This document shows positions 22,950-41,577 of a DNA stretch of 64,000 nt, one piece after another. Origin of the DNA: a virus (taxonomy: Duplodnaviria; Caudoviricetes); the IMG/VR virus record IMGVR_UViG_3300032312_001422, positions 160,001 through 224,000 of that record; one strand, given 5' to 3'. Both the position numbers and the translations under genes were made by a program. The notes beneath the pieces were generated by a model. The model was given only the letters and a program-made list of their open reading frames with translations, did no database searches and was not told where the DNA came from. Numbering within the stretch: the stretch's first letter is position 1; each line of letters opens with the position of its first letter.

Positions 22950-23565
22950 TGATTTTTTCTGCTATTCTTTTGTGTCCCAACTCCAATGGATGTCCTAATG
23001 GTCCTCTTGGGCAATCTCCTTGCCACATATAAATTCCCTCAAACGGCCATCCTGGGTAATGGTTAGTATCGACCCCATCACATAGGTATTGTACACTATT
23101 CCATGCACCGTTGTAAAGCTGTTGATCAATTCCATTTAGGCTAACCATGATGTAAGGTTGATTGATGGATTTTAAATATCCCTGTAATGCCAATATCTGT
23201 GAAACCCATTTTTTATGAGCATGTAAATCATTGTAGTGATATTGGTAGTATGTTTCTAGCCAAGTTAGCCCAAACATCTGAGAGTGTAACTTTCCCACAT
23301 TTACATCCATTGTGCTACGTCGTCGGTCATTCCATATTTCCATTCGACTAGGCTCAGTCCACTGTACAATAACTAGATCAAATTTGTGTTGAACAGTTTC
23401 TTCTACAACCAATCTAAACGTACGATCATTGGATGCACCACCCATGCCTAAATTTTTTACTGAGCGATTGTTTAGTTTTCCAATCAAGTTAGGCCAAGCA
23501 GATTCTGCAGGATTTGGTAATTCTGCACCCTCTGTGAAACTACACCCAACTGCTAATATGTTCAT
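22915..23565 (-). CDS. SGNH-like protein (copy 4)
   Basis: AVGCSFTEG, GMGGASN, GHPLELGH. Confidence 0.65.
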   Translation of the reverse strand: MNILAVGCSFTEGAELPNPAESAWPNLIGKLNNRSVKNLGMGGASNDRTFRLVVEETVQHKFDLVIVQWTEPSRMEIWNDRRRSTMDVNVGKLHSQMFGLTWLETYYQYHYNDLHAHKKWVSQILALQGYLKSINQPYIMVSLNGIDQQLYNGAWNSVQYLCDGVDTNHYPGWPFEGIYMWQGDCPRGPLGHPLELGHKRIAEKINEHIRNIGWLP

Positions 23566-24184
23566 AAATTTTTTCTGCTATGATCGTGTGTCCTTGTTCC
23601 AGTGGATGTCCGCCAGGTCCGTGCGGTGTACCAAATGTCCATTCAGTTGATCCTGAATATGGCCAACCAATGTATGAGTTTATATCTATGCGTTGAACTA
23701 AGTGTTCATGTTGATTTTGTTTTTTTATAAAATCAATATTCCAACTCTCAGCATTACACGCACTAAACATCACGCAAGGAACGGCATTTGCACGACAAAA
23801 CGTTTGTGTTAAAACAATTTGTCTTATCCATTTGGCATAATAATATCCAGGCACATCGTATGCTGTCATGTACTTGATTAGATCACGTCGATGATCTGAG
23901 CAAGTTTGCATTCTGCGATAATCCCTACCTGCCCACAAATCAGTAATACTGATATCATCGGCAAACTCTTGTCTAGCTGGATCTGACCACCCAACAACAA
24001 TCAATGAAGCGCCATCAAATACAGCATCCATTGTACGCTTAACTATGCGGTAGTTTCCAGTTGCTGGTTTACCCCAATTGGTTACAGGTTGTTTTAATTT
24101 TTTACCTAGTAATGTGGGCCAGGCCGTGTCACGGTCAGTTAATTCTTCGCCGTAAGTAAAGCTATCTCCGATACAGTAAATCAT
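23540..24184 (-). CDS. SGNH-like protein (copy 5)
   Basis: CIGDSFTYG, GKPATGN, GHPLEQGH. Confidence 0.65.
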   Translation of the reverse strand: MIYCIGDSFTYGEELTDRDTAWPTLLGKKLKQPVTNWGKPATGNYRIVKRTMDAVFDGASLIVVGWSDPARQEFADDISITDLWAGRDYRRMQTCSDHRRDLIKYMTAYDVPGYYYAKWIRQIVLTQTFCRANAVPCVMFSACNAESWNIDFIKKQNQHEHLVQRIDINSYIGWPYSGSTEWTFGTPHGPGGHPLEQGHTIIAEKIYEHISSWV

Positions 24185-24282
24185 TTATAGATAAATGGAT
24201 CTCTTTTACGCAGTTCTTTTAACTTCTTGCGATAGCGTAACTCTAGCTTAATGCGATTGTAAATGTTTCGTAACCAGTTCAT
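24181..24282 (-). CDS. 33 aa basic small protein (not in ORF track)
   Basis: MNWLRNIYNRIKLELRYRKKLKELRKRDPFIYK*. Its TGA overlaps the ATG of the next gene. Confidence 0.7.
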   Translation of the reverse strand: MNWLRNIYNRIKLELRYRKKLKELRKRDPFIYK

Positions 24283-25030
24283 TGAATTTTCCTTGCATCA
24301 AAACGGATGCGTCTTTGTGTGCTTGTTCCAGTGGATGTGTAGTTCCTATAGGGTATTTATTCTCTACTGCCCACTGATAAAAACCTCTTGGTGTTTTGGT
24401 TTGGTTACTTCCTGTTCCGGCCGGGAACCAAAACCAACGGCTATGATCTATCTGTTTTAACAAACTTGCAATTACTGTGTCTGCCGTATTGATTGTATGG
24501 TTATTGAATATACTGTTGTCTGCACAGGTAAACAAGAATGGTATTTGTTTTAACGTCAAATAGTTTTGTAAGTACGTTATTTCTTTAAGACTGCTGTATA
24601 TTTCCCAGTACTCTGATCCGCCCACATGACGATAAAATGACTCAGCAAAGTCTGCCACACCTGTTTGTTGAGCACGTTTAATGGTCTGCTTTTGTGCTTC
24701 TAATATATCCGCATCTTCTGTAACAAACTCTTCTCGAATGCTATCCAAGTTGGTTTGAATAGTCCATGCATTAATGGCATACCAAGGCGATTTCTTTTGC
24801 CGGGTATCATATGCAAACCTAAATTCATATCTGCCAGGAAATGTCCATGACACTAGGACTCCGGTAACTCCGCCTTGTTCACAACGTTCTATAGTGGTAC
24901 GTGCAATAGCATCGTTGCCAAAGCCAGGCCAGGCCACACACTCGTTGGCACCTAGTAGTGCTGTAAATGTGTTGGCAGGACTTTGTAGTTCACTGCCGTA
25001 AACAAAACTATCTCCGGCTGCTATAATCAT
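24248..25030 (-). CDS. SGNH-like protein (copy 6)
   Basis: AAGDSFVYG, AWPGFGN, THPLEQAH. Confidence 0.65.
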   Translation of the reverse strand: MIIAAGDSFVYGSELQSPANTFTALLGANECVAWPGFGNDAIARTTIERCEQGGVTGVLVSWTFPGRYEFRFAYDTRQKKSPWYAINAWTIQTNLDSIREEFVTEDADILEAQKQTIKRAQQTGVADFAESFYRHVGGSEYWEIYSSLKEITYLQNYLTLKQIPFLFTCADNSIFNNHTINTADTVIASLLKQIDHSRWFWFPAGTGSNQTKTPRGFYQWAVENKYPIGTTHPLEQAHKDASVLMQGKFNELVTKHLQSH

Positions 25031-26093
25031 ATCCAGGCTTCATCATATCTATTTGCTGTTGTTTATAAGTGGCATCAGACCAGCAGTAATCAAATGTTGC
25101 TCGTACTCCATCTACTTCTATTTGGTATATGTCCAAATGACTACTAAGTATATCCCATATGTGTTGATAGTCAGCTGTTCCAAAACTCTTTGTTAACTCC
25201 ACTTGTCCAATGGGCAAGTATCCTAGACTCAATTGAGGGTCTGCAGGGTCACGGTTGTTGGCTATTAACCATTTACGAAACTCTATTTGTTCCTTGGTAT
25301 GCCATGGATTACTATCGCCTAGCAAAGTTACATCGTTGCCCCACTCTACGTCGAACTCACCCGAATAGTATTTTAATTCTGTAATAGATTCGCATACTGT
25401 TTCCGTAAGCTCTGGTGCATGTTCATCACGGAATACTTCAAACAATGTTTTGCCTATCTGTGTCCAATGCATATACACTCCGCCTAGCACACGATCATAT
25501 CCGTTGATGGCAAACCCTGTGCGATGTTCTCCTTTGAGATCATACCGCTGTGCCTGTAGGAATGTGGTAATCTGGCTTGGGCGTACCCAATAAGGTGCTG
25601 TTGATTCTTTGCGTTGACTTAGAATTAAGTTTTCCATCTCGTGACAGATATTGTTTAATTGTCGTATAGCATACTTTGTTTCGTAGTTGGCACGTCGATA
25701 ATAATCACTTAGTCCCCAGACAGTTCCTTGCAAGCGTTCAAAGTGATTGTGTAATTGATTCATTACTGCATGATTAACACCATTATCTGCGTAATCAAAT
25801 CCACGTACAGAGTCTGGCGTAAATGTTTCGGGTATAATATATTCGCAACTACTACTGTTGATTATATCAACTGCTTGATTAAGTTCGTCGCAAAGATATT
25901 CCAATGTGCGGGCTGTGCGAGGGAAGCCCATAAAACAAAAATTCTTTTCTAGCAAGCGACCACTTTGTAATTCTAGCTTTAATGCAGATATCCAATCCTT
26001 TGCCAATTGATTATCTGCAGCCGTGATTGTGTAATCAACTTGATTGTTGTAGTTTAAGGGATTACGTAGGATTACTTTAATTGATTGAGTCAT
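25008..26093 (-). CDS. Hypothetical protein embedded in the modification cluster
   Basis: 361 aa, overlaps both neighbours, NQLHNHFE and NICHEME His motifs. No family recognised. Confidence 0.8.
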   Translation of the reverse strand: MTQSIKVILRNPLNYNNQVDYTITAADNQLAKDWISALKLELQSGRLLEKNFCFMGFPRTARTLEYLCDELNQAVDIINSSSCEYIIPETFTPDSVRGFDYADNGVNHAVMNQLHNHFERLQGTVWGLSDYYRRANYETKYAIRQLNNICHEMENLILSQRKESTAPYWVRPSQITTFLQAQRYDLKGEHRTGFAINGYDRVLGGVYMHWTQIGKTLFEVFRDEHAPELTETVCESITELKYYSGEFDVEWGNDVTLLGDSNPWHTKEQIEFRKWLIANNRDPADPQLSLGYLPIGQVELTKSFGTADYQHIWDILSSHLDIYQIEVDGVRATFDYCWSDATYKQQQIDMMKPGYDYSSRR

Positions 26094-27387
26094 ACCATTC
26101 CAGTGCCGCAGGTCTCAAGGACATTATGTCTCTAAAAGTATACTGGTCTTTTCGAATTCTTTCAATCTCTAATGTTCTGGCCTTGCCTTTACGCAGGCCT
26201 GCTTGGTAAGTGTCAGGCCATTGTTCAGCAAAAGTGGGTCTTGTTTTGAGTTGAATCAGTATATCCCGTAACGGGCCGGTAAGAGGGCGTTCCCCAGGAG
26301 TGCCATTCACAATTTCGTCTATCCAAGGATGCAGTACATCTTTGGGTAGTGCCAACGGGCTCATAATGATGTCTGGGCTAAACGAGAACACCACTTTTGC
26401 TAAAACATCTACTCCGAGTTCTTGGGCAAGCGTTTGTATCGCTTGTACTTCAAAGAGTCCTGGTGTAGTAAGAGTGAAGTCCAAACGGATCTGGCGGCGG
26501 CTACGGTTGTATGCAAGTCCTTCGCGGATGTTCTCAAGCCACTGATCAAAATCAAGACCTGATCGAATATACTCTCCAATTCTGCCCGTGCCGTCGATGC
26601 TTGCACAGATTTGCCAGTCACGTAGCCCAGATAAAATATCCCTAAACAGATTAATACCTCTATAATTGATCCTACTAAGATTTGTGTTGTATCTAGCGTA
26701 AACATTTTTTCCATCTCCAAGTTCGATAATACGCTTCATGTAACGCCAGTGTTGCTCGTACATAAGCGGCTCTCCTCCCACCCAATACACCTCTTCCACT
26801 CGGTGCTCCTCAACAGCAGTGGCAAACTCTTGCTCTACCTGGGTGTCTTGAAACTTTTCTATTTGTATCTTGACTTCGGGACGCATCCAGTTGTTTTTAG
26901 GATTTGTCAAGTCGATCATTGCGTGTTGTCGTTGCTCACTCTCCCAAGCACTACTCAACATGTCACCGCACATGCGGCACTTAAAATTACAAAGGTTACT
27001 AAATCTGTAATCCCACGAAACTGGCTTCATTGTCGTGTAGCCTGTTGCATCAGTATGCTCTATGGCTTGTAAATACTTATGCCCAAACAGCTGGTTAAAA
27101 TAACTACGGTAAACGTCTGTGTTTAATAGTTTGTCGTTGCACACTTCGCACTCGGGTAGTGTTTCCCCAGCCATCATACGACGACGCACACTACGCATAT
27201 GATCGCTGTTCCAATGTTGATCTAATGTAACGGGAATATACTGGCCTGTGCCACTTTTGGTATCAATATACTGCTCAAAGTTTTGTGCTGGCTCGCGGCT
27301 GGCGCAACACATGCGTCTTTCTGTTTGTGGACTCAAATATGTGTGTGTCCAAGGTGCCATGCACAAGGTTGCTGGTTTAAATTGCAT
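26077..27387 (-). CDS. Radical SAM enzyme with N-terminal Twitch/SPASM-like domain
   Basis: CMAPW...MCC...CEVC, then CNFKCRMC and VGGEP. Confidence 0.9.
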   Translation of the reverse strand: MQFKPATLCMAPWTHTYLSPQTERRMCCASREPAQNFEQYIDTKSGTGQYIPVTLDQHWNSDHMRSVRRRMMAGETLPECEVCNDKLLNTDVYRSYFNQLFGHKYLQAIEHTDATGYTTMKPVSWDYRFSNLCNFKCRMCGDMLSSAWESEQRQHAMIDLTNPKNNWMRPEVKIQIEKFQDTQVEQEFATAVEEHRVEEVYWVGGEPLMYEQHWRYMKRIIELGDGKNVYARYNTNLSRINYRGINLFRDILSGLRDWQICASIDGTGRIGEYIRSGLDFDQWLENIREGLAYNRSRRQIRLDFTLTTPGLFEVQAIQTLAQELGVDVLAKVVFSFSPDIIMSPLALPKDVLHPWIDEIVNGTPGERPLTGPLRDILIQLKTRPTFAEQWPDTYQAGLRKGKARTLEIERIRKDQYTFRDIMSLRPAALEWYDSIN

Positions 27388-28447
27388 TTATATACTCAAT
27401 TGCTTGTTGTATTTTATCAACATTGGTTTTTGTAACATGATTGTAAAATGTATGATAGAAATGATTATGATTATAGTCAACTAATTCTTGTATTGCAGGC
27501 GAGTCTAACAAATCGTCTTGATCAAAGTTATCAATAAATTCAAATATTTTTTTATATCTAATACTGTCAACGTCTTTATCATAATCCAATTTAAATTCAG
27601 ATTCAAAAGATTCAAAGCCTAATAATTTTAATCTTTCTATACTGCGTTCTTGTGATACAAGCACAAAGCAACAACCAGTTACAATTGATTTCATTATTTT
27701 TTCTGTCAAATAGGCAACAGGTTGATCATGGCAAGAAACAAACATTGATTCACATGTCCACAATAACTTAGAATCTTTAAGTACACGATTATCGAGCGTC
27801 CACGTATGTCCGGGGGCTTTGATAGGATTTAAATGTATGTGATTTAATAATTCAATTTCTTTGTCTGTGATGTTTAATCCAAATTCAGATATCAACTGTT
27901 GGCAATACAATGTAAATGTTGTTTGATTATATTCAGCCGACGGAGTATTGCAAAATGTATATTGTAATTTATTGTCAAATTTATGTAGTAACTTTGCAGT
28001 CGCCAATGCTTTATGCATAGCGTTTCTATTAGACAGAGAACCATGTGTAAATTTTCTTGTGTGAAGTTTTGTATACTCTGGTTTTTGTAAAAAAGGAATA
28101 ATTGTGTGTAGATGTTCTATATAAAATATTTTTGTACGCTTAAACTCAGGGCCTTGATAAAATTGTGAAGTTAATAAAACTATCTGCTTGTCTGCAAATG
28201 CCGGATCGTTTTCCAATCTCTGTAGCATGTCAGTATTGAAACTTTCCCCAAATGCACACAGAATATAGATATCATAGTCTATCGGTGGATACTTAGGATT
28301 CCACCCAAGGCGGTCTATTAGATAGATACGTTTATCAGTTGATATTTGTTTTAAAAAAACAAGCAATTCTCCAAACTCTTTATCCAGTGGATAAGGGTAA
28401 TTATTTAAATTTCCGTTGTATGTAGTATGGTTGGCCTTAACCCACAT
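27377..28447 (-). CDS. GT10-like putative glycosyltransferase (copy 2, divergent, AT-rich)
   Basis: WTCES...YLTEKIMKSI...LKLLGFESF...DYD. Confidence 0.5.
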   Translation of the reverse strand: MWVKANHTTYNGNLNNYPYPLDKEFGELLVFLKQISTDKRIYLIDRLGWNPKYPPIDYDIYILCAFGESFNTDMLQRLENDPAFADKQIVLLTSQFYQGPEFKRTKIFYIEHLHTIIPFLQKPEYTKLHTRKFTHGSLSNRNAMHKALATAKLLHKFDNKLQYTFCNTPSAEYNQTTFTLYCQQLISEFGLNITDKEIELLNHIHLNPIKAPGHTWTLDNRVLKDSKLLWTCESMFVSCHDQPVAYLTEKIMKSIVTGCCFVLVSQERSIERLKLLGFESFESEFKLDYDKDVDSIRYKKIFEFIDNFDQDDLLDSPAIQELVDYNHNHFYHTFYNHVTKTNVDKIQQAIEYINAI

Positions 28448-29654
28448 ATCCCATTGCCCGTGCTATTTCTTCATGTGTATCCATAAAGTTTTGTTTGCGA
28501 TGTTCGTCTGTGCGTTGCATTTTAAACAAGAACTCCTTACCGTCACTGCCGGTGCCATTTTTAATAAATTTAATTACACTATCAATTTCTTGTTGATATT
28601 TGTTATTTTTCCAAAATGTTGTTTTTAGTTTGTTTAGTACCAATTCCTGTGCTGCCGGAGTCATCATTTGTATGCTCATGTGATCCGGGCTATGCATCAT
28701 ATTAAAATAGATGTCACCAAATCTTTTTGTATCTGCCCAATCCAGTAGTTCATCTAAGTAGTAAACGTTTTGTATGTTTATGGTAAAGCATAACTGTGTG
28801 GTAATATTAGGAGTGTCAACAGCCTGCGTAAAATGCACATCATCAATAATTTTATTTGCTAATTCCCAATTGGCTCCGTAACGTTCATATTCAAAACGTG
28901 AGCCTACGTTGTCAATACTAAAGGCAATGTCAACTCGGCCAAACTCTTTCCACATTAAAATTTGTGGGGTACCAGGTTGTTGTGTAGCATTGGTGTTGTA
29001 GTGTATATCAATATTTTTACTGTATCCTTGATCTACTGCGTACTGTAATAAATCAAAGTGTTCTTGTATCATCCAGGGCTCGCCACCAGTGAATTCAAAG
29101 TACCGAATGTTGGGCAACAACTCACGCATGTTATCCCAGAATGTTTCAGTCTTGCGTGGCCATGCACCTTGCCGTAACCAAGTGTAGGCAATGTGTTCTT
29201 TTTTATTAATGCCTGGCATATAAGCAAGTTCTTCTTCGGCCCACTTGCTCGAACTCCACGATCCGCATATACGACATTTAAGATTACAAATGTTTCCTAG
29301 CTTTAGATCAACAAACCATAGCTGATCTGGATCATCGTTATCCCAATCCACTTGCTGATATAACTCTTTCAAACGAACTTGACTGTGTATACGTTTGCTG
29401 TCACGTCCCGCCGACTCTTCTTCCCAACAGCGACTACAGGTTGCAGGCTTTTCACCGCGTCTAAATTGTCTGCGTAAGTTTTGCATGTATTCACTGTGAT
29501 ATGCCACTTCCAAATTGGTTTCATTTAAGTCATACTTGTTGCCCAACTCATCTGTAATTTCTTCGTGTGCCATACAACAAGGTCGTGTAGTTCCCATCGG
29601 GCTGGCTTCGATACTAATCCAGGGCAACATACAAATTGTCTTAGGTAGGTTCAT
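28437..29654 (-). CDS. Radical SAM enzyme with N-terminal Twitch/SPASM-like domain
   Basis: CMLPW...PCC...CSRC, CNLKCRIC, TGGEP, HYNTN. Confidence 0.9.
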   Translation of the reverse strand: MNLPKTICMLPWISIEASPMGTTRPCCMAHEEITDELGNKYDLNETNLEVAYHSEYMQNLRRQFRRGEKPATCSRCWEEESAGRDSKRIHSQVRLKELYQQVDWDNDDPDQLWFVDLKLGNICNLKCRICGSWSSSKWAEEELAYMPGINKKEHIAYTWLRQGAWPRKTETFWDNMRELLPNIRYFEFTGGEPWMIQEHFDLLQYAVDQGYSKNIDIHYNTNATQQPGTPQILMWKEFGRVDIAFSIDNVGSRFEYERYGANWELANKIIDDVHFTQAVDTPNITTQLCFTINIQNVYYLDELLDWADTKRFGDIYFNMMHSPDHMSIQMMTPAAQELVLNKLKTTFWKNNKYQQEIDSVIKFIKNGTGSDGKEFLFKMQRTDEHRKQNFMDTHEEIARAMGYVG

Positions 29655-30984
29655 AATCTTTTAAATTGGCTAGTTCCGGGAATGTTTCCCAAAAATCTTC
29701 ATTGCGTACTGTATCTAGTTTAGCACACTCCTCAACAAAGCGTGGCCACAGGTGACTTTGATCTGCACCTTTTAATAAATTCAATGTGCTACGGAATCCA
29801 TTGGTTGCACGTTTAAGATTGTCTTGTGACTGCAACCACTCGATATGTTGTTCGTATGCAGGCACAATAACATCACGTTTAAACTGTTCTGGAAAGATAT
29901 CTATGCGATACCATTCCGGGCTTTGGCAAATATTTACATTAAAGTCTTTGGCTTTAATCAGCCCCAACTCAGTCCACTCTCGATGGAAATCCAAAACGTG
30001 CAACACATTCATTGAACTGATAGTGGCACTGATATAAAAGTCCACATGCGGCACTTCTGCCTGCATGCGTTGACGGTTATCCACGGCTTGTGCCCAATCT
30101 GTTCCTTTACGCATCAGCTCGGCTCTGACTCCCGATGCATCTAGGCTGGCGCCAACACTAACATTCTTAAAGTGTTTCCAATAATCAAACACATGTTTAT
30201 CTTTGTAAGCCAACTCGCTGAAATTGGTGTTGTACTGAATACGCACATCTGTTTTACCGGCTTCAATCAACTTCTCCAGCAAGTAATAATGTTCTTTCAT
30301 AATTAGGGGTTCGCCACCAGCAAAGTACACCTGTTCAAGATGAGGTATGTGTGGCTCCATCTGTGCTAGCATACCGTCTTCGTCTCCGGTGGTGTACTCT
30401 ACACGAGCCATATCACGGCCAAGCACATCAGGAACACGATTATACAACTTGACATGATCGTTAAACCAGTTACTGCTGAAAATAGGCCCACAGCTGCGAC
30501 AACGGAAGTTACAAAGGTTGCTAAAACGAACGTCCCAATAACGTATTTTGAATTCAGGATTTGTGCCATCATCTTGTGTCCTTTCGATTTCATCTATATG
30601 ATGTCCATAGTTACGATTGGCATCGTTACGCATACTAAAAAATCCGTTGCGTTCTTGTTCGTAACATTTATTACACTCTTTACTCTTGATTTCTGTAACC
30701 ATGTTCTTACGCAGGTTACGATATGGTTCTTGATTCCACACTTGTTCCATGGTGTTTTTACGCAGGTCTCCAACTGGATGCCAATAGTCTGCTACACAAC
30801 AAGGATAAGCACGGCCATCCGGAAAAGCATGTAAGTGCATCCAAGGCAACATACAAAATGTTTCGCTTTTCATTAATAAATCTTGTTGTGTTTCACTGAG
30901 TTTGTCAGGTTCAATAAAATAAGGTTTACGTGCCATGTAGTCGTAACCCTTGTTGTAAAAGTCTTTTGTTGTATTTTCACTCAT
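29641..30984 (-). CDS. Radical SAM enzyme with N-terminal Twitch/SPASM-like domain
   Basis: CMLPW...PCC...CNKC, CNFRCRSC, AGGEP, QYNTN. Confidence 0.9.
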   Translation of the reverse strand: MSENTTKDFYNKGYDYMARKPYFIEPDKLSETQQDLLMKSETFCMLPWMHLHAFPDGRAYPCCVADYWHPVGDLRKNTMEQVWNQEPYRNLRKNMVTEIKSKECNKCYEQERNGFFSMRNDANRNYGHHIDEIERTQDDGTNPEFKIRYWDVRFSNLCNFRCRSCGPIFSSNWFNDHVKLYNRVPDVLGRDMARVEYTTGDEDGMLAQMEPHIPHLEQVYFAGGEPLIMKEHYYLLEKLIEAGKTDVRIQYNTNFSELAYKDKHVFDYWKHFKNVSVGASLDASGVRAELMRKGTDWAQAVDNRQRMQAEVPHVDFYISATISSMNVLHVLDFHREWTELGLIKAKDFNVNICQSPEWYRIDIFPEQFKRDVIVPAYEQHIEWLQSQDNLKRATNGFRSTLNLLKGADQSHLWPRFVEECAKLDTVRNEDFWETFPELANLKDYEPT

Positions 30985-31735
30985 ATAGTATATCTTTGTT
31001 TGTTAGTTGTGGTATTAGTATTTCTCGTAACCATCCTTCTGTTGCTTCTGGAAACTTAGGATGGAAATGATCATCTTCTAAATATTTGCGTTTTCTAGCC
31101 CAGTCGCCGTAGTAGTCGTCGTCATGTAACGGCAACCACGGTTCTTTGTCTAAGGACAAATTTAATTTAGCAAGTTCGGCACCGAAGTCAGCAAAATGCG
31201 GCGATGGAAAACTGTGTTTTTTATAATTCAAAAATGATGTATAACAATATGTGTATTGGTTAATCTTTAGATAGTTAGATAAATTTTGCATTGCCAACCA
31301 ACTGTGCAATGTTAAACTGTGGATAGACTGATATTTTGAATAGTCCACCAATGTTTTTATCAACGGTGTTGGGTTTTTTGCATTCCACCAGGCCCCGCCT
31401 ACTACAAGTTCATTGTAATCATCGTATTGGTAATTGAATGAATACTCTGTTGAAAAATTTGAATTTTTAGCATCAGTGATCCAGTCAATTCTGTTGATAC
31501 CGGACCACATTGCAATTACCAAGGTATCTTCTGTTGGTAATTTGTTCTTTTCTAGGTAAAGCATGATGCTTTTGCTAATGTGATCGTTACCTACTCCGGA
31601 TATGGCAAGATTATGTATCTGCATGCCGGTCCAGTCAGCTAACAAATTTGCCCAGCTCGAATGTCCGGGTATACGTCCTGTGTGATGCGTAAAACTACAC
31701 CCCGAAACTACTAAATGTTTAAATTTAGATTTCAT
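30977..31735 (-). CDS. SGNH-like protein (copy 7)
   Basis: VSGCSFT, AISGVGN, DDHFHP. Confidence 0.6.
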   Translation of the reverse strand: MKSKFKHLVVSGCSFTHHTGRIPGHSSWANLLADWTGMQIHNLAISGVGNDHISKSIMLYLEKNKLPTEDTLVIAMWSGINRIDWITDAKNSNFSTEYSFNYQYDDYNELVVGGAWWNAKNPTPLIKTLVDYSKYQSIHSLTLHSWLAMQNLSNYLKINQYTYCYTSFLNYKKHSFPSPHFADFGAELAKLNLSLDKEPWLPLHDDDYYGDWARKRKYLEDDHFHPKFPEATEGWLREILIPQLTNKDILYE

Positions 31736-33074
31736 TGTACCACTCTGCCAAATTGGAGAACGTCTCTACAAAGTTCTTACTGCGACGTTGATCGTATTGT
31801 GTAAAAAATTGTTTGAAGTCCTGTTGTAGTATACTTTGTTCTGCAGCACCCACATGCGGAGTTATAACCACATCAAGATAATCAATCAGGCGTTTTAATT
31901 GGTCAATTTCAAACGCATGGAACACACCAAAGTCTTTGTGCGTTTTATAAAATTCACTTAATTTTGTTCTGTATTGTGTTCGAATTGTGTCTGGTAGTAC
32001 CAACGGACTTTGAAAACTTGGAAAGCGTAATATGTTTAGTGAAAAATTAATTGAATCTTTACCGTGCTTGAGTTTCCAGTTATATACCATCTCAAGGAAG
32101 CTGTCTAACGTATCCAAGCACAATGCATTAATGGTACACATGACATGCAGGCCGCGGAACTTGCCCGAGTCTAGTAGACGTTCAACATTATTAGTCCAGT
32201 CATCAAACACAAGGCCATCTCGAATGTATTCAGCTTGCAATCCTATTGATTCGTTGCTGGTATATAAATCAATTTCTACTCCATCAATTGCAACAAGCAA
32301 TCGATCAATATCCACGTCAGTGCCTAGGTTACTGTTGATGGCAAGACGTGTAGAGCTTTTACCTTTATTGGTTTTAAACCAATCAATTAACTTCCAGGTT
32401 TCCGCACTCATCAACGGCTCACCGCCAGTGATGCGTAATTCTTTTAGTGTCCTGTGTAGATCTGATTCCCACCATGCATGAAAAGCTTCAACGTACGGAT
32501 TTGTTTCTCCAAACTTGTAAAGCTGACTAGCATCATGGGCATGAGTAAAGTGATTGCGGCCATCGCTGACAAGACCGTTATAAGCACCATTGGTCTTGAT
32601 GTCTCGGACCCAAGTACTACTGAACGCTGGGTTACAGTAGCTACAGGCAAATTGGCAGGTTCTGTCAAACGCAATTTCCAGGGTTTGGAGATCAATATCT
32701 TCGCTGGCGGGTGTTCTAAAGGCATGTGATAAATCCTTGTCATCGTATATAACTGTTTTGTAAACACGATCACTGATGTTGTCTCGGCCAATGTCTTCTA
32801 TTTTCCAGCAGTATTCACAACCAGTGGGACGTTCACCTTTTTGCATTTGTTCGCGTTCCATTTTTTTCTTTTGCGTATTATGCAACGCTTTTGGATTACG
32901 TGCAACATCCTCTACACTTACTTGGTGTGGCAATGGATGATGACAACTGGTAGTTTGCCCCGATCCTAGCCAAATAGTAGCATTGTACCATTTGGCTCCG
33001 CAGAAGCTTTCTGACTTGATGTCAATTACTCTGCGTTTATACTCTAAATCAGTTTCGTTATTAATTCTGGGCAT
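31725..33074 (-). CDS. Radical SAM enzyme with N-terminal Twitch-like domain (Cys/His subtype)
   Basis: CGAKW...SCHHP...CEYC, CQFACSYC, TGGEP. Confidence 0.9.
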   Translation of the reverse strand: MPRINNETDLEYKRRVIDIKSESFCGAKWYNATIWLGSGQTTSCHHPLPHQVSVEDVARNPKALHNTQKKKMEREQMQKGERPTGCEYCWKIEDIGRDNISDRVYKTVIYDDKDLSHAFRTPASEDIDLQTLEIAFDRTCQFACSYCNPAFSSTWVRDIKTNGAYNGLVSDGRNHFTHAHDASQLYKFGETNPYVEAFHAWWESDLHRTLKELRITGGEPLMSAETWKLIDWFKTNKGKSSTRLAINSNLGTDVDIDRLLVAIDGVEIDLYTSNESIGLQAEYIRDGLVFDDWTNNVERLLDSGKFRGLHVMCTINALCLDTLDSFLEMVYNWKLKHGKDSINFSLNILRFPSFQSPLVLPDTIRTQYRTKLSEFYKTHKDFGVFHAFEIDQLKRLIDYLDVVITPHVGAAEQSILQQDFKQFFTQYDQRRSKNFVETFSNLAEWYNEI

Positions 33075-34444
33075 GGTATTTACATTCGTTCCAAAATTCT
33101 GTCATTTCTGGAAAAGTTTTTAAAAAGTCAGTTTTGCGTCGTTTGTCGTGTTCGTTAAAAAAAACGATAAAAGTCTGCACGTTGCAGTTTAACATATTCT
33201 GGGTCTAGATTGCGACCTGCTTTCATCCAATCTATATCTCTACGCATACGCTGTACTTCGTAGTCTTTGAATCCATGGAATGGGTCATCTGCGGTTTCCA
33301 AATTGAGTTCCATCCAATCTGCCACACGTTCTAGCACACCAATGTAGACTTCGGGTAATATTTGTAAACTTTGCCAGGTAGGTGTACGCAACAGCGGAGT
33401 ATCAAACCAAACACGCTGGTAGGTTTTACTATGCACTCGACGTAGGTCGAGTATCCACTCTAGTTGTCGTTGTAAGCCCAACACACTTAGATTGTTCATG
33501 GTAATAATAAATGTCAAACTGTTACGATACGGAATGTCTGTTAAGAAACGACTTACATTATCAGCCATGCGAGAAAAATTTAAACCATGTCTAATGTACT
33601 CTGCATGTCTGGGTTTACCCGAATCTAAACTCACATACTGCATAAAGTGTTCAATCTGGGTTGAACATAATTGCTTGACATAGCCCAAGTACTTGTGAAA
33701 CAATCGGTCTTCTACACTGAAGTTGCTGGTCACATCCAAGTGTAGTTCTGGATTGGGTAGTGCCAACACATAATCAAATACTTTGTAGGTATTCTTATCC
33801 ATTAGGGGCTCACCACCGGTCATGCGGAAATGTTTCAAATGAGGATACAGCTCAGGCCACCATTCCCAGAACGCATCCACGTAAGGATTGTCGTAACTGG
33901 CTGGGATAGGCCTGCGGCGACCAGTGAAGTGCTTGGGATCGTTATGCGGTGTGCTGGTAGGGTATGCACCGTAGTAGTCAGTTTCTTGCATCCAGGTGCT
34001 AGAGAACTGCGGACTGCAATAGCTACACTTGAGATTACATACATGATTGAAATTTACTTCAACATAACTGGGTATCCAATCTTCTGTACCTGTGCTGGAC
34101 TTGATTGCGTTATAGTCGTTGGCGGCCCAGGGTTCTCCTGAGCGGTAATGACGGTCACTGAGATTGCCCATGTCCTCTTGTGTCCAGCAATAACCGCACT
34201 CCTGTGGGCGTTCATTTTTAAGCATGATCACACGTTGATCTTTTTTGTGTGCTGTGTTGTGTAGTGCACCAGGATTGTCTTTTAATGCTGTAGGGTCAAT
34301 TTCATGCAGGGGCGGATGATAACAACTGTTGGTCATACCTGTAGCCAAATGCAAGCTGACTTGTTTCCATTTGGCTAGGCACAGCCCAGGACCCAATAGT
34401 TCCTTCATCTTTTCTGCAGAGGACATAAAATTGCTTTTTGACAT
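33061..34444 (-). CDS. Radical SAM enzyme with N-terminal Twitch-like domain (Cys/His subtype), interrupted by a +1 frameshift at 33155-33164
   Basis: CLAKW...SCYHP...CGYC, CNLKCSYC, TGGEP. Frame 0 stops at RFF* (33155). The +1 frame continues NEHDKRRKTDFLKTFPEMTEFWNECKYHAQN*, matching paralogue C-termini. Confidence 0.85.
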
Positions 34445-34447
34445 TAA

Positions 34448-35404
34448 TTAATCCTCAACTAGAGTAATTTTTTTAGAATAATTGCGATGTATTAACAAGT
34501 TATAGTTGTGATCTAGTATGCTTTGCATTGTGTGGTACATAGTGTTGAGCTCGTTTTTAGATTTGGTTGCCAACGTATCTGTCAACTTGATAATGTGGTG
34601 AAAACGAGTAACTGGATCGTATCCATCGTAATCTTCATCCCAGAAATCGTGGAATGTACGAAATCCCAGCTGACGTAAATAAATTAAATGATTTTTTGGG
34701 CCCATAATTATAAATGGCTTTTTCATCAACATGGGCCTAAATGTTTTTTCTGTGGGGCAAAAAGTATTGCCAGAGGTGTAACTTTCTGCTACCACGTCGA
34801 TCAGTATGTCTGGGTAAAATTCCAACAACTGATCTGTAAATCCCGAAGTATCTTGTTGTCCTGGAGTATATCCATCTTGCGTTTCTAGCATCAATGGCAA
34901 ACTATCAGCAATCGTTGCGAACGTTTTAATTTGTTCTGGCGCATTGGTAAACAGTTCTGTTAATTCAAATAGTTTGCGTGAATCTTCGTTGCGGTAATCG
35001 CCACGTAAATTCACGTACGATTCTGCGGGATACTGTGCCAACAAATGCCCAGCAATGCCAAGGCGGTGCCAAATTGGTCTTCCGTAATATGCTAAAAATA
35101 TCTTATTACCGTTCCATACATGATATTTGCTGTCTACTGGTTTTTTAACCTGTGCCCACTGTAGCAATGATTGGACTCTAATAAAATACTTGTCATGTTG
35201 TTCAATACAATTTCCGCTGTGTATTTCAACATATTTAAAATTGAATTTGTCTAATAGATCATACAAACCCGTTGCTGAACAGCTGGCACCTTCGGTTCTT
35301 GTGTCTATGCTTATTGTGCCACCTTGATTTTTAACTAAGAAATCAACTAGCTCAACTTGGTTCCAAATAAACGTGTCAGCAGTTATTACAGTAAATTTAT
35401 TCAA
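34448..35404 (-). CDS. GT10-like putative glycosyltransferase (copy 3)
   Basis: DVVAES...PTEKTFRPM...PFIIMG...GFRTFHDFWDEDYD. Confidence 0.55.
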   Translation of the reverse strand: MNKFTVITADTFIWNQVELVDFLVKNQGGTISIDTRTEGASCSATGLYDLLDKFNFKYVEIHSGNCIEQHDKYFIRVQSLLQWAQVKKPVDSKYHVWNGNKIFLAYYGRPIWHRLGIAGHLLAQYPAESYVNLRGDYRNEDSRKLFELTELFTNAPEQIKTFATIADSLPLMLETQDGYTPGQQDTSGFTDQLLEFYPDILIDVVAESYTSGNTFCPTEKTFRPMLMKKPFIIMGPKNHLIYLRQLGFRTFHDFWDEDYDGYDPVTRFHHIIKLTDTLATKSKNELNTMYHTMQSILDHNYNLLIHRNYSKKITLVED

Positions 35405-35921
35405 TCAAAAATCCAGAAATCTGTAATGTAAATTTATTTTGTAATCCAGCATTGGCACTAAGATGTTCTACAGAACTGTCCCATTGCAATCCTTCACCGG
35501 CACGCCAGTGTGTACTGACTTCATTGTCGTACTGTATAAAATGTCCCAGTTTCCAATCTTCCAAATAGATATTGGATCGAACTTTGATTTCTTTTCTGTC
35601 AGGATAATTTTTATTAATTTGAAAAAATGTATCTCTATGTAACGGAATCATGCAACCAGGTTCTTGTAAAATACTACTGACCATAATGACTTCCATGTTC
35701 AGCTGGCGGCCAAATTCTTCGTAGTCTACTTGTGTACGATCCCACCAAAGCTGATGTATTTTGGTATTGTCATAATTGAATGTGTTTGGGTAGCCGCCGT
35801 ACTTTTGATAGATATCATCAAGTTCTTTTTTCTGATGAGTCATGCAACTACCTTCGTGCTGGTTGTAGTCAGCTGCCAGTATAGTGGAAAAATCGTAATC
35901 TAAATTTATTTTATTAATCAT
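35397..35921 (-). CDS. 2OG-Fe(II) oxygenase / Asp-Asn beta-hydroxylase-like cupin
   Basis: PGCMIPLHRD (HxD), WRAGEG, EHLSANAG, TLQISG. Confidence 0.7.
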   Translation of the reverse strand: MINKINLDYDFSTILAADYNQHEGSCMTHQKKELDDIYQKYGGYPNTFNYDNTKIHQLWWDRTQVDYEEFGRQLNMEVIMVSSILQEPGCMIPLHRDTFFQINKNYPDRKEIKVRSNIYLEDWKLGHFIQYDNEVSTHWRAGEGLQWDSSVEHLSANAGLQNKFTLQISGFLIE

Positions 35922-35922
35922 A

Positions 35923-36804
35923 TTAAAACCTTGTGGGTATTTTACTAGGGTGCCAAAACTTTGTTAAATCTTGTCCTTGTAATATCAATGCTGTGGCTTG
36001 CTCAGTCCACTCTTGTGTTGCTGGATCTATTTGAATGTCTAGTGCAACTTTGTTTAGATATTCTAAATATTCGGTTGGTATTGGATGCGTGTCGTAACGA
36101 TGTAAAAATCTATTGCTAAACAGATGTGTTTCGTTTATTTCACGGTGAATTTCTGCATCCAAATTGGTAAAATCTTGATTGGTGAATTGTTTCCACGTGG
36201 GCCAACTATCCCCACGTTTTATTTCATATTCTTCTTTTAATTTTGCGTTGTCCAAATAGCCTTTTCGGCTGTACCAGTCGCAATTAAAAATTACTTCATA
36301 AACACTAGGAGCAACTGTGGCCAGTTCTTCTCTGTATAAATTACTTATCTTATTGTCTATGCTAAAAATTTTAAACACATTATCGTCAGGCACATTAAAT
36401 GGCACAATACTAAAGAAATAGTACTGGCAACCTATTGCATCTAATACAGCTTTGGCGCCAGCCAGGTGTGCTGTGTCACGCAACAAGTATCCGGTTGGAT
36501 CGGTAAATTTCTTAACAAAATTCTCATCGTAGTCGGTTTGATTGTATATGCTTCCGGGAGTTAGCCACTCGCCCCCAACATAACGATCCTCACGGCCAAT
36601 ACTGCTCCACATGATCATTACTACATCATCTTGGGTTATCTTGTTACGCTTGTGACATTCCATTAGGCTGTAAAAGATAAAACTATTGCCGGCGCCGGGT
36701 TGCCCCCAATTTTGATAATGAGTGTACTGTCGTGCCACTATGTCAGCCCAGGTAGGATGTTTTGATCTGGTGAACGAGCAACCGAAAGCAAAGAATCTTG
36801 TCAT
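35923..36804 (-). CDS. SGNH-like protein (copy 8)
   Basis: AFGCSFT, GQPGAGN, DTHPIP. Confidence 0.6.
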   Translation of the reverse strand: MTRFFAFGCSFTRSKHPTWADIVARQYTHYQNWGQPGAGNSFIFYSLMECHKRNKITQDDVVMIMWSSIGREDRYVGGEWLTPGSIYNQTDYDENFVKKFTDPTGYLLRDTAHLAGAKAVLDAIGCQYYFFSIVPFNVPDDNVFKIFSIDNKISNLYREELATVAPSVYEVIFNCDWYSRKGYLDNAKLKEEYEIKRGDSWPTWKQFTNQDFTNLDAEIHREINETHLFSNRFLHRYDTHPIPTEYLEYLNKVALDIQIDPATQEWTEQATALILQGQDLTKFWHPSKIPTRF

Positions 36805-37637
36805 TTTGTTAGTACGTTATTATAATGTAAAATCACACTTTCGTCATCCTGGGCAGTTGGACACATGGTACATACCTGATGTGGTCGACCATAATTGTTT
36901 AGGAATGCCGCTATATCAGAATCTGGGCTGTCCGGAGTAATGTACTTGCCTTTGTATGGATCCCATGCAGGATCTACGTTGCCAAAACGATCCAGTGTTT
37001 GTTCTAGGCCGCCCAAGGTACTGCACTTGTACATGCGACCATTGAACATCAACGGACATTTCTGTTGCATACAGATATTGAAACTGTCTGCCGGGTTTGA
37101 GTCAAACGGCATCATGTTAGGATAGTCGTTCCGGTAGTACTTGATAAATGTCAGTGGACGATTGACTTGAAAACGCAAACCATTTGTAGTCTTGTATCGG
37201 TATATACCAAACTCGTACACAGGTTCCCACTTGTACATTGAGAATATTTTAGCTATTACGTTTTCAACACGTTCGCTGTGTTGATGCACAGTAATTTTAA
37301 AAACAAAGTTGCCCACTTCGTGTGCTGTTTCTACAACATCCAAGTGCCGGTCCAATAGCTCTCCATTGGTACTAAAGCGTATAGGGCTTGTGGGTAATAA
37401 CTCACGTAGGCCACGTATCCACAGTTTGAGTTCAGGGTTGATCAAGGGCTCACCTCCCATGATACCGAAGTCTTCAATTGCCATTCTGGGCAACCACGAT
37501 TCTATTTCTTGACGGCCGTCTGCCCAAGGAACATAACCTGTGTGTTTTAAGTCAGCATAATTACTGCACCCAACACAACTCAGGTTACAAAATTGTGTAA
37601 CCATCATTTCTACAAAAGGTAAGTGATGTTTAGTCAT
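36801..37637 (-). CDS. Radical SAM enzyme (short, C-terminal Cys cluster)
   Basis: CNLSCVGC, MGGEP, FSTNG. C-terminal CMQQKC...KCS...CTMC. Confidence 0.88.
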   Translation of the reverse strand: MTKHHLPFVEMMVTQFCNLSCVGCSNYADLKHTGYVPWADGRQEIESWLPRMAIEDFGIMGGEPLINPELKLWIRGLRELLPTSPIRFSTNGELLDRHLDVVETAHEVGNFVFKITVHQHSERVENVIAKIFSMYKWEPVYEFGIYRYKTTNGLRFQVNRPLTFIKYYRNDYPNMMPFDSNPADSFNICMQQKCPLMFNGRMYKCSTLGGLEQTLDRFGNVDPAWDPYKGKYITPDSPDSDIAAFLNNYGRPHQVCTMCPTAQDDESVILHYNNVLTK

Positions 37638-38676
37638 TGAATGTGTTCTGTATTTGTTGATGTGTTAGTGCCATGAATACATTATAGTTATGATCAAGTA
37701 CGGATTGCATATTGTTTAGTGTTGTAATTAGTTTTTCTGGACTCCATAGACCAATGGTGTTGATTAATTTTAATATTTCTCGTACACGCCACTGCATACC
37801 ATATTCATCATAACCTTCGTCCCAAAATTCATTGAATGTTTGAAATCCTAAGCGACGCAGGTTAGCCAAATGATTTCTACCACCCATGGTAATAAATGGC
37901 CGACGTGCCAGGATAGGACGCCAAGTTTTTTCTGTGGCAAAACAAACCTCATCACGCACAAATGTTTCATGCACAATGTCAACAAATATATTATTATAGT
38001 ATTGTAATATATTAAGATTTGCTGGCAATTGTATAGGATAACAATCATCCTGTTTGATATATGTAGACATGTTTTTGATTGCTTCTATTTCTTCAGGAAT
38101 AAATTGAGGACAGGTTTTTAAAAATTCCACAGCCACGTCAATTTGATCACATTCCATTTTAACTAAATCTTCTAATCCTACAAAATCACAAAGGCCATCA
38201 TTTTTTACCAAATAGTGTGTGCCAATGCCAGTATTATATGTTTGGAATGTTTTGTCTCTAAAGTTTTTATGCAATGCTGATGCTATCCACAATCTATTCC
38301 AGTTGCTTTTTCCAATAAAATGTCCAAAATGTAAATTGGGGTGTTGTCCAGTATCTACTGAGTTATTTGTCAGCCACTTTTGTATAACTGGAAGTTCGAA
38401 CCAGGCACCAGCATCTTTTACGATTGTGTACTCAGGGTGTTGCTCGATCATGTTGCCTGTACGTATACTAATGTTCTGTTTATTGTATCCGGTGTGTTTG
38501 CAAAACGCATCTAGATATCTGTACAATCCGCATCCTTCCAAACTTGATCCTTCTGGGACAACTGTTAATTTTGCAGAGTGTTTGTTGTTTAAGCAATCGT
38601 ACAGGTGCATAACCAACAAGTCTTTACGCCAAAACTTATTGTCATTGATGCCAACGTGATATTCTTTATTCAACAT
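37630..38676 (-). CDS. GT10-like putative glycosyltransferase (copy 4)
   Basis: DIVHET...ATEKTWRPI...PFITMG...GFQTFNEFWDEGYD. Confidence 0.55.
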   Translation of the reverse strand: MLNKEYHVGINDNKFWRKDLLVMHLYDCLNNKHSAKLTVVPEGSSLEGCGLYRYLDAFCKHTGYNKQNISIRTGNMIEQHPEYTIVKDAGAWFELPVIQKWLTNNSVDTGQHPNLHFGHFIGKSNWNRLWIASALHKNFRDKTFQTYNTGIGTHYLVKNDGLCDFVGLEDLVKMECDQIDVAVEFLKTCPQFIPEEIEAIKNMSTYIKQDDCYPIQLPANLNILQYYNNIFVDIVHETFVRDEVCFATEKTWRPILARRPFITMGGRNHLANLRRLGFQTFNEFWDEGYDEYGMQWRVREILKLINTIGLWSPEKLITTLNNMQSVLDHNYNVFMALTHQQIQNTFND

Positions 38677-39628
38677 AGGTTATTTGAGTAGTAAATTTTT
38701 TACTTAATAGCAACTCGTAGTTGTGATCAAGTACGGATTGCATGTGATTGTACATATCTTGTAATTCTGCGTGTGACTTGTTGGCCAATGAATCGATCAA
38801 TGTCAGTATTTTTTTGTATCGATGTTCTGTGTTGTGTCCATCATAGCTTTCGTCCCAAAATTCATTAAATGTACGAAATCCCATTTGCCGCAAGTGTATT
38901 AAAAAACATTTTGGACCCATTACAATAAACGGTTTTTTCATCAGCATAGGTCTTACAGTTTTTTCTGTAGGATAAAATGAACGTCCCGCAACAAAAGTTT
39001 CTACTACCACATCAATTAAAAAATCAGTATAAAATTCACAGAGCTGATCAGTGTGATTAACTACAGTATCGCCAATTGTACACCCATCCACAGTTTCCAA
39101 CTGTACAGGAAAATCTTTATAACAATTCATAAAAAATTGTAACGATTCTGGATCTACTTCAAATAGTTTTTCTAATTCAAACATTGGTCGCTGATCTTTA
39201 TTGTGCGGATCGAATCTAAAATTTAACAATGTTTTGTTGTAATATTTGGTATGCAAATAACTGGCCAATCCCACTCGGGGCCAAGTTGGACGATTGTAAA
39301 AAACACCAAATTGTTTTGCACCTGACCATGCGTGATACTGACTATAGTCTATTGTTTCTGGCACTACAAAATACTGAAACGCATCTCTATGTACAACTAT
39401 TTTATAGTTATTATTTGACTCTACTATATTGTTTGTACATATTTCAACTGATTTAAAAGAAAAAAAATCCAATAATCGATACACTCCCAAATTTTCTAAA
39501 CATGCACCTTCAGGTATGGCAACATGAATTGATTTTCCTTGCCAATCTATCAGGAATTGTACCAATTCATCATAGTTCCAGATTGTGGTATCATTTATGT
39601 TGAGAATAACTTCGTTTTCAAGTTTCAT
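38666..39628 (-). CDS. GT10-like putative glycosyltransferase (copy 5)
   Basis: DVVVET...PTEKTVRPM...GFRTFNEFWDESYD. Clearly paralogous to 34448..35404 along its length. Confidence 0.55.
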   Translation of the reverse strand: MKLENEVILNINDTTIWNYDELVQFLIDWQGKSIHVAIPEGACLENLGVYRLLDFFSFKSVEICTNNIVESNNNYKIVVHRDAFQYFVVPETIDYSQYHAWSGAKQFGVFYNRPTWPRVGLASYLHTKYYNKTLLNFRFDPHNKDQRPMFELEKLFEVDPESLQFFMNCYKDFPVQLETVDGCTIGDTVVNHTDQLCEFYTDFLIDVVVETFVAGRSFYPTEKTVRPMLMKKPFIVMGPKCFLIHLRQMGFRTFNEFWDESYDGHNTEHRYKKILTLIDSLANKSHAELQDMYNHMQSVLDHNYELLLSKKFTTQITYVE

Positions 39629-40335
39629 ATATAGTTATTTTTTATCAAATGATCGTGCAACTGGTCTGCATATTGTTGGTGTGCAATTGGCATTGGATGT
39701 AACGTATCATCAAATGCATTGAGTTTTTTAGCAACACCATGCAAACATACATCAGTAAAAAAGTTTTTATCATCAATCATATTATATAAACTGTCACATT
39801 CTTTTATGCGTGATAAAGGCCGGTACGGTATAAAAACATAAGGAATATTTGTTGCTTTTAATGTGTTTTGTAAAGATATTATTTTTACAATAGTAGAAAA
39901 AATATGGTCTTTAAGGCCAGTTACTTTATAGTACTCATGTACCACGCGACCTAGGCTATCATCTTTTTTGCGATTTAAATGACCTCCCCCAAACACCCAA
40001 TTTTTTTGTACGTAGTCTTGATCATTGATTGGAAATATTTTTTTACTGGGCCAGTCATTTTGCTGACTTTCATAGTATGATGTAGTTTTAATGTCGCTAA
40101 ATTGGTGAATATTTCTAACTCTGAAGTCAAATCTTTCTGCATAAGACCACATAATCAATACAAGGTTGTATGGTCGCTGACTGATTTCAGCCACAGTAGC
40201 TTCATGTATATATGTGTTGCCAGCACACGCCATTGATAAATTTACAATGTTACAATTTGGTATTTTTTCCTGTAACAGGTAAGGCCAGGACCCTTCTCCG
40301 CGGGAGACTGAACTTCCATTAATTAGTATATTCAT
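39625..40335 (-). CDS. SGNH-like protein (copy 9)
   Basis: INGSSVSRG, SMACAGN, DTLHPMPIAH. Confidence 0.6.
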   Translation of the reverse strand: MNILINGSSVSRGEGSWPYLLQEKIPNCNIVNLSMACAGNTYIHEATVAEISQRPYNLVLIMWSYAERFDFRVRNIHQFSDIKTTSYYESQQNDWPSKKIFPINDQDYVQKNWVFGGGHLNRKKDDSLGRVVHEYYKVTGLKDHIFSTIVKIISLQNTLKATNIPYVFIPYRPLSRIKECDSLYNMIDDKNFFTDVCLHGVAKKLNAFDDTLHPMPIAHQQYADQLHDHLIKNNYI

Positions 40336-41231: not shown

Positions 41232-41577
41232 AATATTCTATATCTTGATATTGTTCATTGGGCGCCAATGCCAGTGCAGCCAGACCTCGAACCACTGGTT
41301 GACCGGTGTTGCTTTTTGCAAGATGCGTTCGTGTTATCTTTGTGTCGATGATTTTTAGTTCGCCGTTGATTACACGTAATCTGCTGGTGTTGGTTTTAAA
41401 AAATACATCGGGATTGTCTATCACAATGTAATTGGTGTCAGGCGGATGAGCAGTTTCACAGTACATGGTAACGTTGCCTTCTTCGTCATAGTATATCCTG
41501 GGCTCTGTGATCAGTACGGGACGTTGACGATTGTATTCTTCAACCAATTGTAGTGCTTCAAGCAATTCTGGATTCAT
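41209..41577 (-). CDS. Hypothetical protein
   Basis: 122 aa, overlaps both neighbours. Confidence 0.7.
   Translation of the reverse strand: MNPELLEALQLVEEYNRQRPVLITEPRIYYDEEGNVTMYCETAHPPDTNYIVIDNPDVFFKTNTSRLRVINGELKIIDTKITRTHLAKSNTGQPVVRGLAALALAPNEQYQDIEYYDRKTIN

Follow-up and report, generated by a model that had tools for sequence, protein, structure and literature searches.

We analysed a window of 64,000 nucleotides, bases 160001-224000 of the 288,815-bp IMG/VR virus record IMGVR_UViG_3300032312_001422 (estimated completeness about 80%); position numbers are window coordinates unless stated otherwise. Between 43467 and about 20084 all genes are encoded on the minus strand; adjacent ones share 4-32 nt or stand a few bases apart, with one 63-nt gap at 24185-24247. 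This operon contains genes for five radical S-adenosylmethionine (SAM) enzymes, NTwi1 to NTwi5, in which a cysteine module stands ahead of the radical SAM core:

26077-27387, minus strand: NTwi1, CC subtype, 436 amino acids (aa); NF033640 292 bits; orthologues in 80 contigs; one supported tree split
28437-29654, minus strand: NTwi2, CC subtype, 405 aa; NF033640 337 bits; Pfam SPASM 25.6 bits, residues 8-77
29641-30984, minus strand: NTwi3, CC subtype, 447 aa; NF033640 398 bits; Pfam SPASM 48.4 bits, residues 44-108
31725-33074, minus strand: NTwi4, S-C-H-H-P subtype, 449 aa; NF033640 283 bits; subtype residues 100% conserved
33061-34444, minus strand: NTwi5, S-C-Y-H-P subtype, open frame 33155-34444 (429 aa); NF033640 277 bits

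All five proteins matched the NCBIfam model NF033640 (N_Twi_rSAM) over their full length at 277-398 bits, with a curated cut-off of 170 bits. We aligned the five window proteins together, and then with 80 orthologues from related viral contigs (85 sequences). Across the 85 sequences, in NTwi3 numbering, C44, W48, C63, C104, C107, C158, C162, C165, S170 and W173 were invariant, as were the GGEP motif, N254, S280, R92, R292 and T321, with R119 and R427 nearly so. In all five, a four-cysteine module (C-x3-W...G-x4-C...C-x2-C) precedes the CxxxCxxC core, as an initial annotation made from the sequence alone had described. The spacing C-x12-G-x4-C ... C-x2-C is that of the first half of the SPASM signature, and the Pfam SPASM model (PF13186, gathering score 21.5 bits) matched NTwi3 and NTwi2 above this score and NTwi1 just under it at 20.2 bits; NTwi4 and NTwi5 gave no match. 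Conserved C-terminal cysteines were absent from the five in the alignment.

The two ligand subtypes of the initial annotation were recovered in full. NTwi1-3 always have C-x2-P-W together with C-C, and NTwi4-5 always have C-x-A-K-W together with S-C-[H/Y]-H-P, each subtype being 100% conserved across 16-18 orthologues. As the module has only four cysteines, compared with the seven of the SPASM set, it is likely to bind a single auxiliary [4Fe-4S] cluster ligated entirely by Cys, judging from the sequences. Four conserved arginines would suit an anionic handle, for example a nucleotide diphosphate.

Canonical SPASM/twitch enzymes (SFLD subgroup 17: BtrN, anSME, SkfB, MoaA and BlsE) share with the phage proteins the radical SAM core and the C-x9-15-G-x4-C ... 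C-x2-C signature, but their module is C-terminal, whereas that of the phage proteins is N-terminal and has four cysteines rather than seven. In an Azospirillum radical SAM protein, a segment homologous to the N-twitch module sits C-terminally, after the core, which fits the phage module being a permuted twitch domain. The N-terminal placement had initially been taken as unusual; since NF033640 is already curated, it is not a new arrangement. With NF033640 the proteins share the full-length match, the GGEP motif and the four cysteines that precede CxxxCxxC, but that model is a catalogue entry without a function, whereas here we find a fixed set of five paralogues in a phage operon, in two subtypes. 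Conserved Cys sets N-terminal to the barrel have also been noted in the SPASM/twitch megacluster of RadicalSAM.org (PMC9477430). Searched against 1.84 billion proteins, a profile of the 85 sequences matched 14,032 representative clusters (50% identity) at E<=1e-10, of which at least 7,435 reached E<=1e-30. In PHROGs, NTwi3 matched only a generic 'radical SAM' family, and nine neighbouring genes matched nothing. A cyanophage paper mentions an unrelated radical SAM 'maturase' (PMC12801897).

Two more N_Twi_rSAM genes lie elsewhere in the genome (G000:C1:133131-134264, L006, and G000:C1:5319-6365, L007), along with other, generic radical SAM genes. One of the two encodes an N-terminal extension of about 125 aa and lies near a 2-oxoglutarate (2OG)-Fe(II) oxygenase gene, with a 101-aa open reading frame (ORF) between them; the other adjoins a gene for a DnaB-like helicase and, by pattern check, encodes a Cys module whose first part is missing. 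N-twitch-type genes also occur in the cultured Vibrio phages K566, K567 and QD01 and in Ralstonia phage RsoM2USA. In Vibrio phage K566 (L089, OZ196521.1, 161548-165950 and nearby), four radical SAM genes have the full Cys pattern.

The fifth paralogue had been annotated as intact to 33061, which alignment with intact relatives contradicts. The NTwi5 frame halts at 33155 because of a one-base insertion that makes a run of eight T (at about 33160), where the relatives read CGTTTCTTT. The last 31 codons, with the invariant Arg and the TFPE tail, lie in another frame down to 33061; the stop falls inside the family match, and a separate C-terminal match follows. The insertion may reflect a homopolymer error in sequencing, or the gene may truly be truncated.

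The initial annotation had spoken of an expansion. Recent tandem expansion was rejected, because the paralogues are only 19-31% identical to each other and orthologues of each are found across the clade. Orthologues at 46-94% identity are carried by 80 viral contigs, some longer than 350 kb, with some of the genes missing from contigs that are cut short. The gene order NTwi5-4-3-2-1 holds across contigs, with 5-4-3-1-2 in a distant clade, and maximum-likelihood analysis recovers every one of the five groups as one supported split (Shimodaira-Hasegawa-like approximate likelihood ratio test, SH-aLRT, 97-100). The five are ancient orthologous groups, which uncultured T4-like and jumbo phages of a large clade retain as a fixed set with translational coupling. 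The cassette adjoins tail-fibre genes in all 80 loci and has a conserved frame: u331, u104, u262, u283, u122 and u299 on the tail-fibre side, and u361, SGNH-like genes, a NodU-like carbamoyltransferase and a P-loop kinase fused to a nucleotidyltransferase on the other. A search for near-identical DNA in a phage collection found none.

Natural fusions provide the strongest evidence that the substrate may be a sugar. In P0155, an N_Twi radical SAM domain (302 bits) is joined to a family 2 glycosyltransferase (GT2) domain (PF00535, 5.6e-17); in P0249, a GT-A domain is joined to an N_Twi radical SAM domain (308 bits); and in P0181, a u299/u611-family domain is joined to an NTwi5-type radical SAM domain, the u299 gene being the one that sits just upstream of NTwi5 in the cassette. 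The radical SAM parts that were tested all exceed the NF033640 cut-off. The contigs that encode P0155 and P0249 (L092 and L093) are also rich in sugar genes: L092 has at least nine radical SAM and five GT2 genes, and L093 has GT-A and UDP-Glc/GDP-Man dehydrogenase genes. Tandem radical SAM fusions keep the order of the cassette (NTwi3-NTwi2, NTwi5-NTwi4 and NTwi2-NTwi1), suggesting that neighbours act together. Predicted proteins made of two or three N_Twi modules number in the dozens (P0121-P0149; 790-1,466 aa); the modules often follow the gene order of the cassette, and the proteins are either true fusions or merged gene calls.

Bacterial relatives occur in similar surroundings. On a Methylomagnum plasmid, an annotated N-twitch radical SAM gene lies amid GT39, GT2, GT4, polyprenyl and ABC-transporter genes, and on an Azospirillum plasmid several radical SAM genes lie with two carbamoyltransferase genes and genes for an SGNH hydrolase, methyltransferases and a short-chain dehydrogenase/reductase (SDR). 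In the phage window, the operon continues downstream of the radical SAM genes into a conserved block that also encodes a 180-aa protein, and nucleotide-sugar genes lie beyond it on the other strand:

20084-25030, minus strand: conserved downstream block, by Pfam, NCBIfam and synteny
24248-25030, 23540-24184 and 22915-23565, minus strand: the three SGNH-like genes of this block
21468-22949, minus strand: NodU-like carbamoyltransferase; Pfam Carbam_trans_N/C 132/164 bits
20084-20941, minus strand: P-loop kinase and nucleotidyltransferase; APS-kinase-like N terminus, NMNAT-like C terminus
14894-16925, plus strand: SDR 4,6-dehydratase/epimerase-like protein and DegT/PseC-like aminotransferase; Pfam 151 and 255 bits

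By NCBIfam and Pfam the SDR resembles a dTDP-glucose dehydratase and the aminotransferase resembles PseC; in the distant clade, these SDR and aminotransferase genes adjoin the cassette. The remaining conserved genes flank the radical SAM block directly:

25008-26093, minus strand: u361, directly downstream of NTwi1; conserved in most related loci long enough to reach it
40332-41231, minus strand: u299, DxD protein directly upstream of the radical SAM block; conserved in 80 loci; tentatively GT2-like
41209-43467, minus strand: u122, u283, u262 (a paralogue pair, one with a DVD motif) and u104; synteny in 80 loci

The GT2-like label of u299 is a lead taken from an automatically named Atlas neighbour cluster, and u122, u283, u262 and u104 had no family match in Pfam or NCBIfam. 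For u361 (mean column identity 59%, with many invariant His, Glu and Asp residues), no family was found, Foldseek against the PDB gave no match and a PDB sequence-profile search gave nothing. Its AlphaFold 2 (AF2) model (predicted local distance difference test, pLDDT, 85) has middling matches to cyclophilin-like barrels (Z 7-8.5), with a helical insert, an Atlas template-modelling score (TM) of 0.33, and uncharacterised cellular relatives in AFDB at TM 0.78.

The genes that interrupt the radical SAM block in this genome, four of them TEK-motif transferase-like, two SGNH-like, one cupin-like and one encoding a short radical SAM enzyme, are all variable inserts; a further SGNH-like gene follows u299:

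27377-28447, minus strand: distant member of the 'TEK-motif' transferase-like proteins, insert, 356 aa; weak BLASTP links to GTl348, GTl320 and u388
30977-31735, minus strand: SGNH-like insert, 252 aa; weak DUF6071 match (E 0.0014, below cut-off); few relatives have it there
34448-35404, minus strand: TEK-motif transferase-like insert, 318 aa; 48% identical to 38666-39628; no Pfam match
35397-35921, minus strand: small cupin/2OG-oxygenase-like insert, 174 aa; weak Asp_Arg_Hydrox match (E 0.0075)
35923-36804, minus strand: SGNH-like insert, 293 aa; 36% identity over 98 residues to the 252-aa SGNH-like protein; no family match
36801-37637, minus strand: sixth, short radical SAM insert, 278 aa; Pfam Radical_SAM 50.2 bits; generic NCBIfam (MoaA/HxsC N terminus)
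37630-38676 and 38666-39628, minus strand: two TEK-motif transferase-like inserts; all-viral family
39625-40335, minus strand: SGNH-like protein, 236 aa; BLASTP link to the 260-aa SGNH-like protein

The sixth, shorter enzyme has the C-terminal Cys cluster that the initial annotation assigned to it: CNLSCVGC lies at the N terminus, and C-x4-C, a further C and C-x2-C at the C terminus, with an NF033640 score of only 27.7 bits. Its occurrence is limited to the closest relatives (L009, L013 and L031), and the larger insert block to which it belongs, with the 293-aa SGNH-like gene and two TEK genes, recurs in the nearest relatives only. Other relatives have single GT-like genes of low identity between radical SAM genes; at the position of 27377-28447 such a gene (TEK/u388-type) is found in many relatives and is missing from many others. 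The TEK motif was compared in 24 family members, in which its E-K pair is invariant and its T nearly so. Structural neighbours of the Atlas model of this family are viral proteins that carry a fused methyltransferase or SDR dehydratase domain. The interleaving of 'GT10-like' and SGNH genes reported in the initial annotation stands as an arrangement, but the first of the two labels was not recovered (below), and the second depends on sub-threshold DUF6071/GDSL matches of the interleaved 252-aa and 293-aa proteins and on an N-terminal G-[DC]-S motif, G-C-S-F by eye.

Upstream of the operon, the sole sizeable intergenic gap (43468-43544) contains a promoter candidate ahead of u104:

43499-43527, minus strand: sigma-70-like promoter, TTGACA-17-TAAACT

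By a strict pattern, 17 of 41 distinct relatives have a similar sigma-70-type site ahead of their u104 orthologue; promoter-like and terminator-like sites within the operon occur at chance level. Many relatives, among those noted for this gap (L010, L012, L016, L019, L023, L028, L034, L049, L050 and L056), have a perfect palindrome across or after the -10 box, perhaps an operator or a hairpin in the 5' RNA. The window contains no copy of TATAAATA, the T4 late-promoter word, where 5.2 were expected from shuffles; tail-fibre genes at 46596 and 48600 carry CTAAATA and GATAAATA motifs upstream that look late-promoter-like. Tail-fibre-type genes in the window encode an S74 chaperone domain, a protein with a weak, sub-threshold tail-collar match and an ORF of more than 3,900 aa; T4-type nucleotide genes (DHFR and thymidylate synthase) are also present. 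The large open frame, at 52257-63998, has at least 3,913 aa, runs past the window end and is probably a giant VrlC-like structural protein as known from pelagimyophages.

A carbohydrate-tailoring role is the best-supported reading for the five N-twitch radical SAM enzymes in this sugar operon, and we consider it moderately probable. That these enzymes act on sugars, as the initial annotation proposed, has support from the cluster and the family as a whole, namely from the operon, the GT fusions and the bacterial clusters; the accompanying idea that each edits the product of a neighbouring GT is not. Several results weigh against a carbohydrate role. A literature search for the reaction of any N_Twi_rSAM member or N-terminal SPASM/twitch enzyme found none. 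The GT-like families have no Pfam (E<=0.01), NCBIfam or PDB sequence match, so no CAZy family is assignable to them by sequence, and the product of 27377-28447 has no Pfam or NCBIfam match; PF00852 (GT10) had no match anywhere in the genome at E<=10, and although the nearest Pfam-bearing Atlas clusters of the TEK family are GT10, at 0.78-0.79 they lie below the trust level and serve as a lead only. Some N_Twi fusions, to TPR/Sel1 repeats or to a subtilase piece, suit protein recognition at least equally. The conserved sigma-70-like promoter hints at early transcription, which is weak evidence; virion decoration would fit less well with an early-type promoter than with late expression, and DNA or host modification would suit early transcription about as well as virion decoration does.

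The fold of the enzymes does not single out a sugar reaction either. The AF2 model of NTwi3 (pLDDT 92.3) matched known folds in the common radical SAM core alone, with many enzymes at Z of about 11-12.6. SkfB and BlsE reached Z 12.6, tied with CteB, MoaA, anSME, viperin and DesII; the neighbours include the peptide maturases SkfB, CteB, anSME and SuiB, and the sugar enzymes DesII, BlsE and AprD4 match no better than peptide or cofactor enzymes. PDB sequence-profile searches with the radical SAM proteins gave weak core matches only. As these matches are generic, the reaction is not readable from the fold, and no specific sugar enzyme stands out. The analogy to BtrN drawn in the initial annotation found no specific support, since fold and sequence searches returned the generic core; BtrN itself was absent among the listed fold matches of the NTwi3 model. 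The radical SAM enzymes of antibiotic pathways (BtrN, DesII, AprD4 and BlsE) do offer a parallel, acting on sugars or aminocyclitols beside DegT aminotransferases and SDR dehydratases, but with fold matches that are not specific, no reaction can be transferred from them to the phage enzymes.

Most characterised SPASM/twitch enzymes act on protein or peptide residues, and the phage enzymes might likewise modify residues of tail-fibre or other virion proteins by epimerisation, cross-linking or C-methylation. The peptide maturases among the structural neighbours, the repeat and subtilase fusions and the adjoining tail-fibre genes are consistent with this. However, the structural matches are to a generic core and tie with non-peptide enzymes, the GT-domain fusions and sugar-enzyme contexts favour carbohydrate, Pfam and NCBIfam show no RRE-type domain (such searches do not prove absence), the small proteins encoded nearby are neither Cys-rich nor repetitive and u104 and u122 look ordinary; we regard protein modification as unlikely. 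An operon product could also be a diffusible small molecule (a pseudo-oligosaccharide, or one that is aminoglycoside-like or nucleoside-like) instead of a decorated macromolecule, given that aminoglycoside and nucleoside antibiotic pathways have a similar mix of DegT, SDR, carbamoyltransferase, kinase/nucleotidyltransferase, radical SAM enzymes and soluble GTs. The cluster scans, however, showed no cyclitol synthase, exporter or resistance gene, and the tight, universal linkage to tail-fibre genes argues against a diffusible product, which is to us the least probable of these accounts.

Hypermodification of phage DNA or nucleotide precursors would place the radical SAM enzymes on a base-linked sugar or side chain of glycosylated or carbamoylated bases. 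Known phage DNA-modification systems contain carbamoyltransferases, kinases and GTs, and the solubility of all enzymes in the operon and the early-type promoter agree with such a role. Against it, the ThyA encoded nearby is an ordinary thymidylate synthase and not a hydroxymethylase (353.9 bits compared with 327), which leaves a hydroxymethyl-pyrimidine pathway unsupported; Pfam and NCBIfam found no DNA-binding or base-flipping domain in the cluster, the cassette is anchored at tail-fibre genes in 80 of 80 loci, and the bacterial relatives lie in polysaccharide-type clusters. DNA modification is in our view improbable. A pairing of each paralogue with an adjacent GT, whose installed sugar it would edit, is suggested by the GT-like genes that separate some radical SAM genes in the window and by the radical SAM-GT fusions found elsewhere. 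Yet in 17 of 31 distinct arrangements the stretch from u299 to u361 is free of GT-like genes while all five radical SAM genes persist, the counts of GT-like and radical SAM genes are negatively correlated (Spearman -0.43), and among the five radical SAM genes in the window a single GT-like gene lies between two of them. As the GT-like genes are variable inserts with negatively correlated counts, one-to-one pairing fails as a rule, and we hold it to be very improbable.

For pelagimyophages, a host-recognition cluster has been described that resembles the present locus in being a large variable region by tail fibres and VrlC (Zaragoza-Solas et al. 2020, PMC7029224). That study mentions radical SAM cassettes in passing and proposes modification of the host O-antigen without a test; it differs in that the family, the five-gene core and its conservation were not identified there. 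The N-terminal architecture is already catalogued; what is described here is the fixed five-paralogue phage operon set with two conserved ligand-region subtypes. We add the GT and u299 fusions, the tandem fusions in cassette order, the C-terminal placement of the homologous module in a bacterial relative, the count test of one-to-one GT pairing and the NTwi5 frameshift.

Under a carbohydrate-tailoring role, each radical SAM enzyme would abstract a hydrogen atom from a different sugar position, with the auxiliary cluster serving electron transfer. The substrate would be a nucleotide-activated precursor, or a glycan on a cytoplasmic acceptor such as a virion protein; a membrane check found no membrane protein encoded in the cluster, which points to a cytoplasmic acceptor. 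Oxidation, epimerisation, deoxygenation or C-C chemistry would result, and carbamoylation and acyl editing would follow, with the variable TEK-motif transferases adding lineage-specific sugars. The enzymes may work as a physical assembly, as the natural fusions of cassette neighbours suggest. More tentatively, and with considerable doubt, the N-twitch radical SAM enzymes and the fused GT2-like proteins could form an assembly line that makes several radical edits on one glycan of a virion or host-contact protein.

What makes this question testable is the fixed five-gene set, together with the GT fusions and the homologues in cultured Vibrio phages. Phages spend 7-20 kb on at least five different radical SAM enzymes in a sugar operon, which points to unexplored carbohydrate chemistry, and the product probably has a role in host recognition or virion protection. 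If the proposal is true, it would be radical glycan editing of a kind undescribed for any virus, and widespread in aquatic phages.

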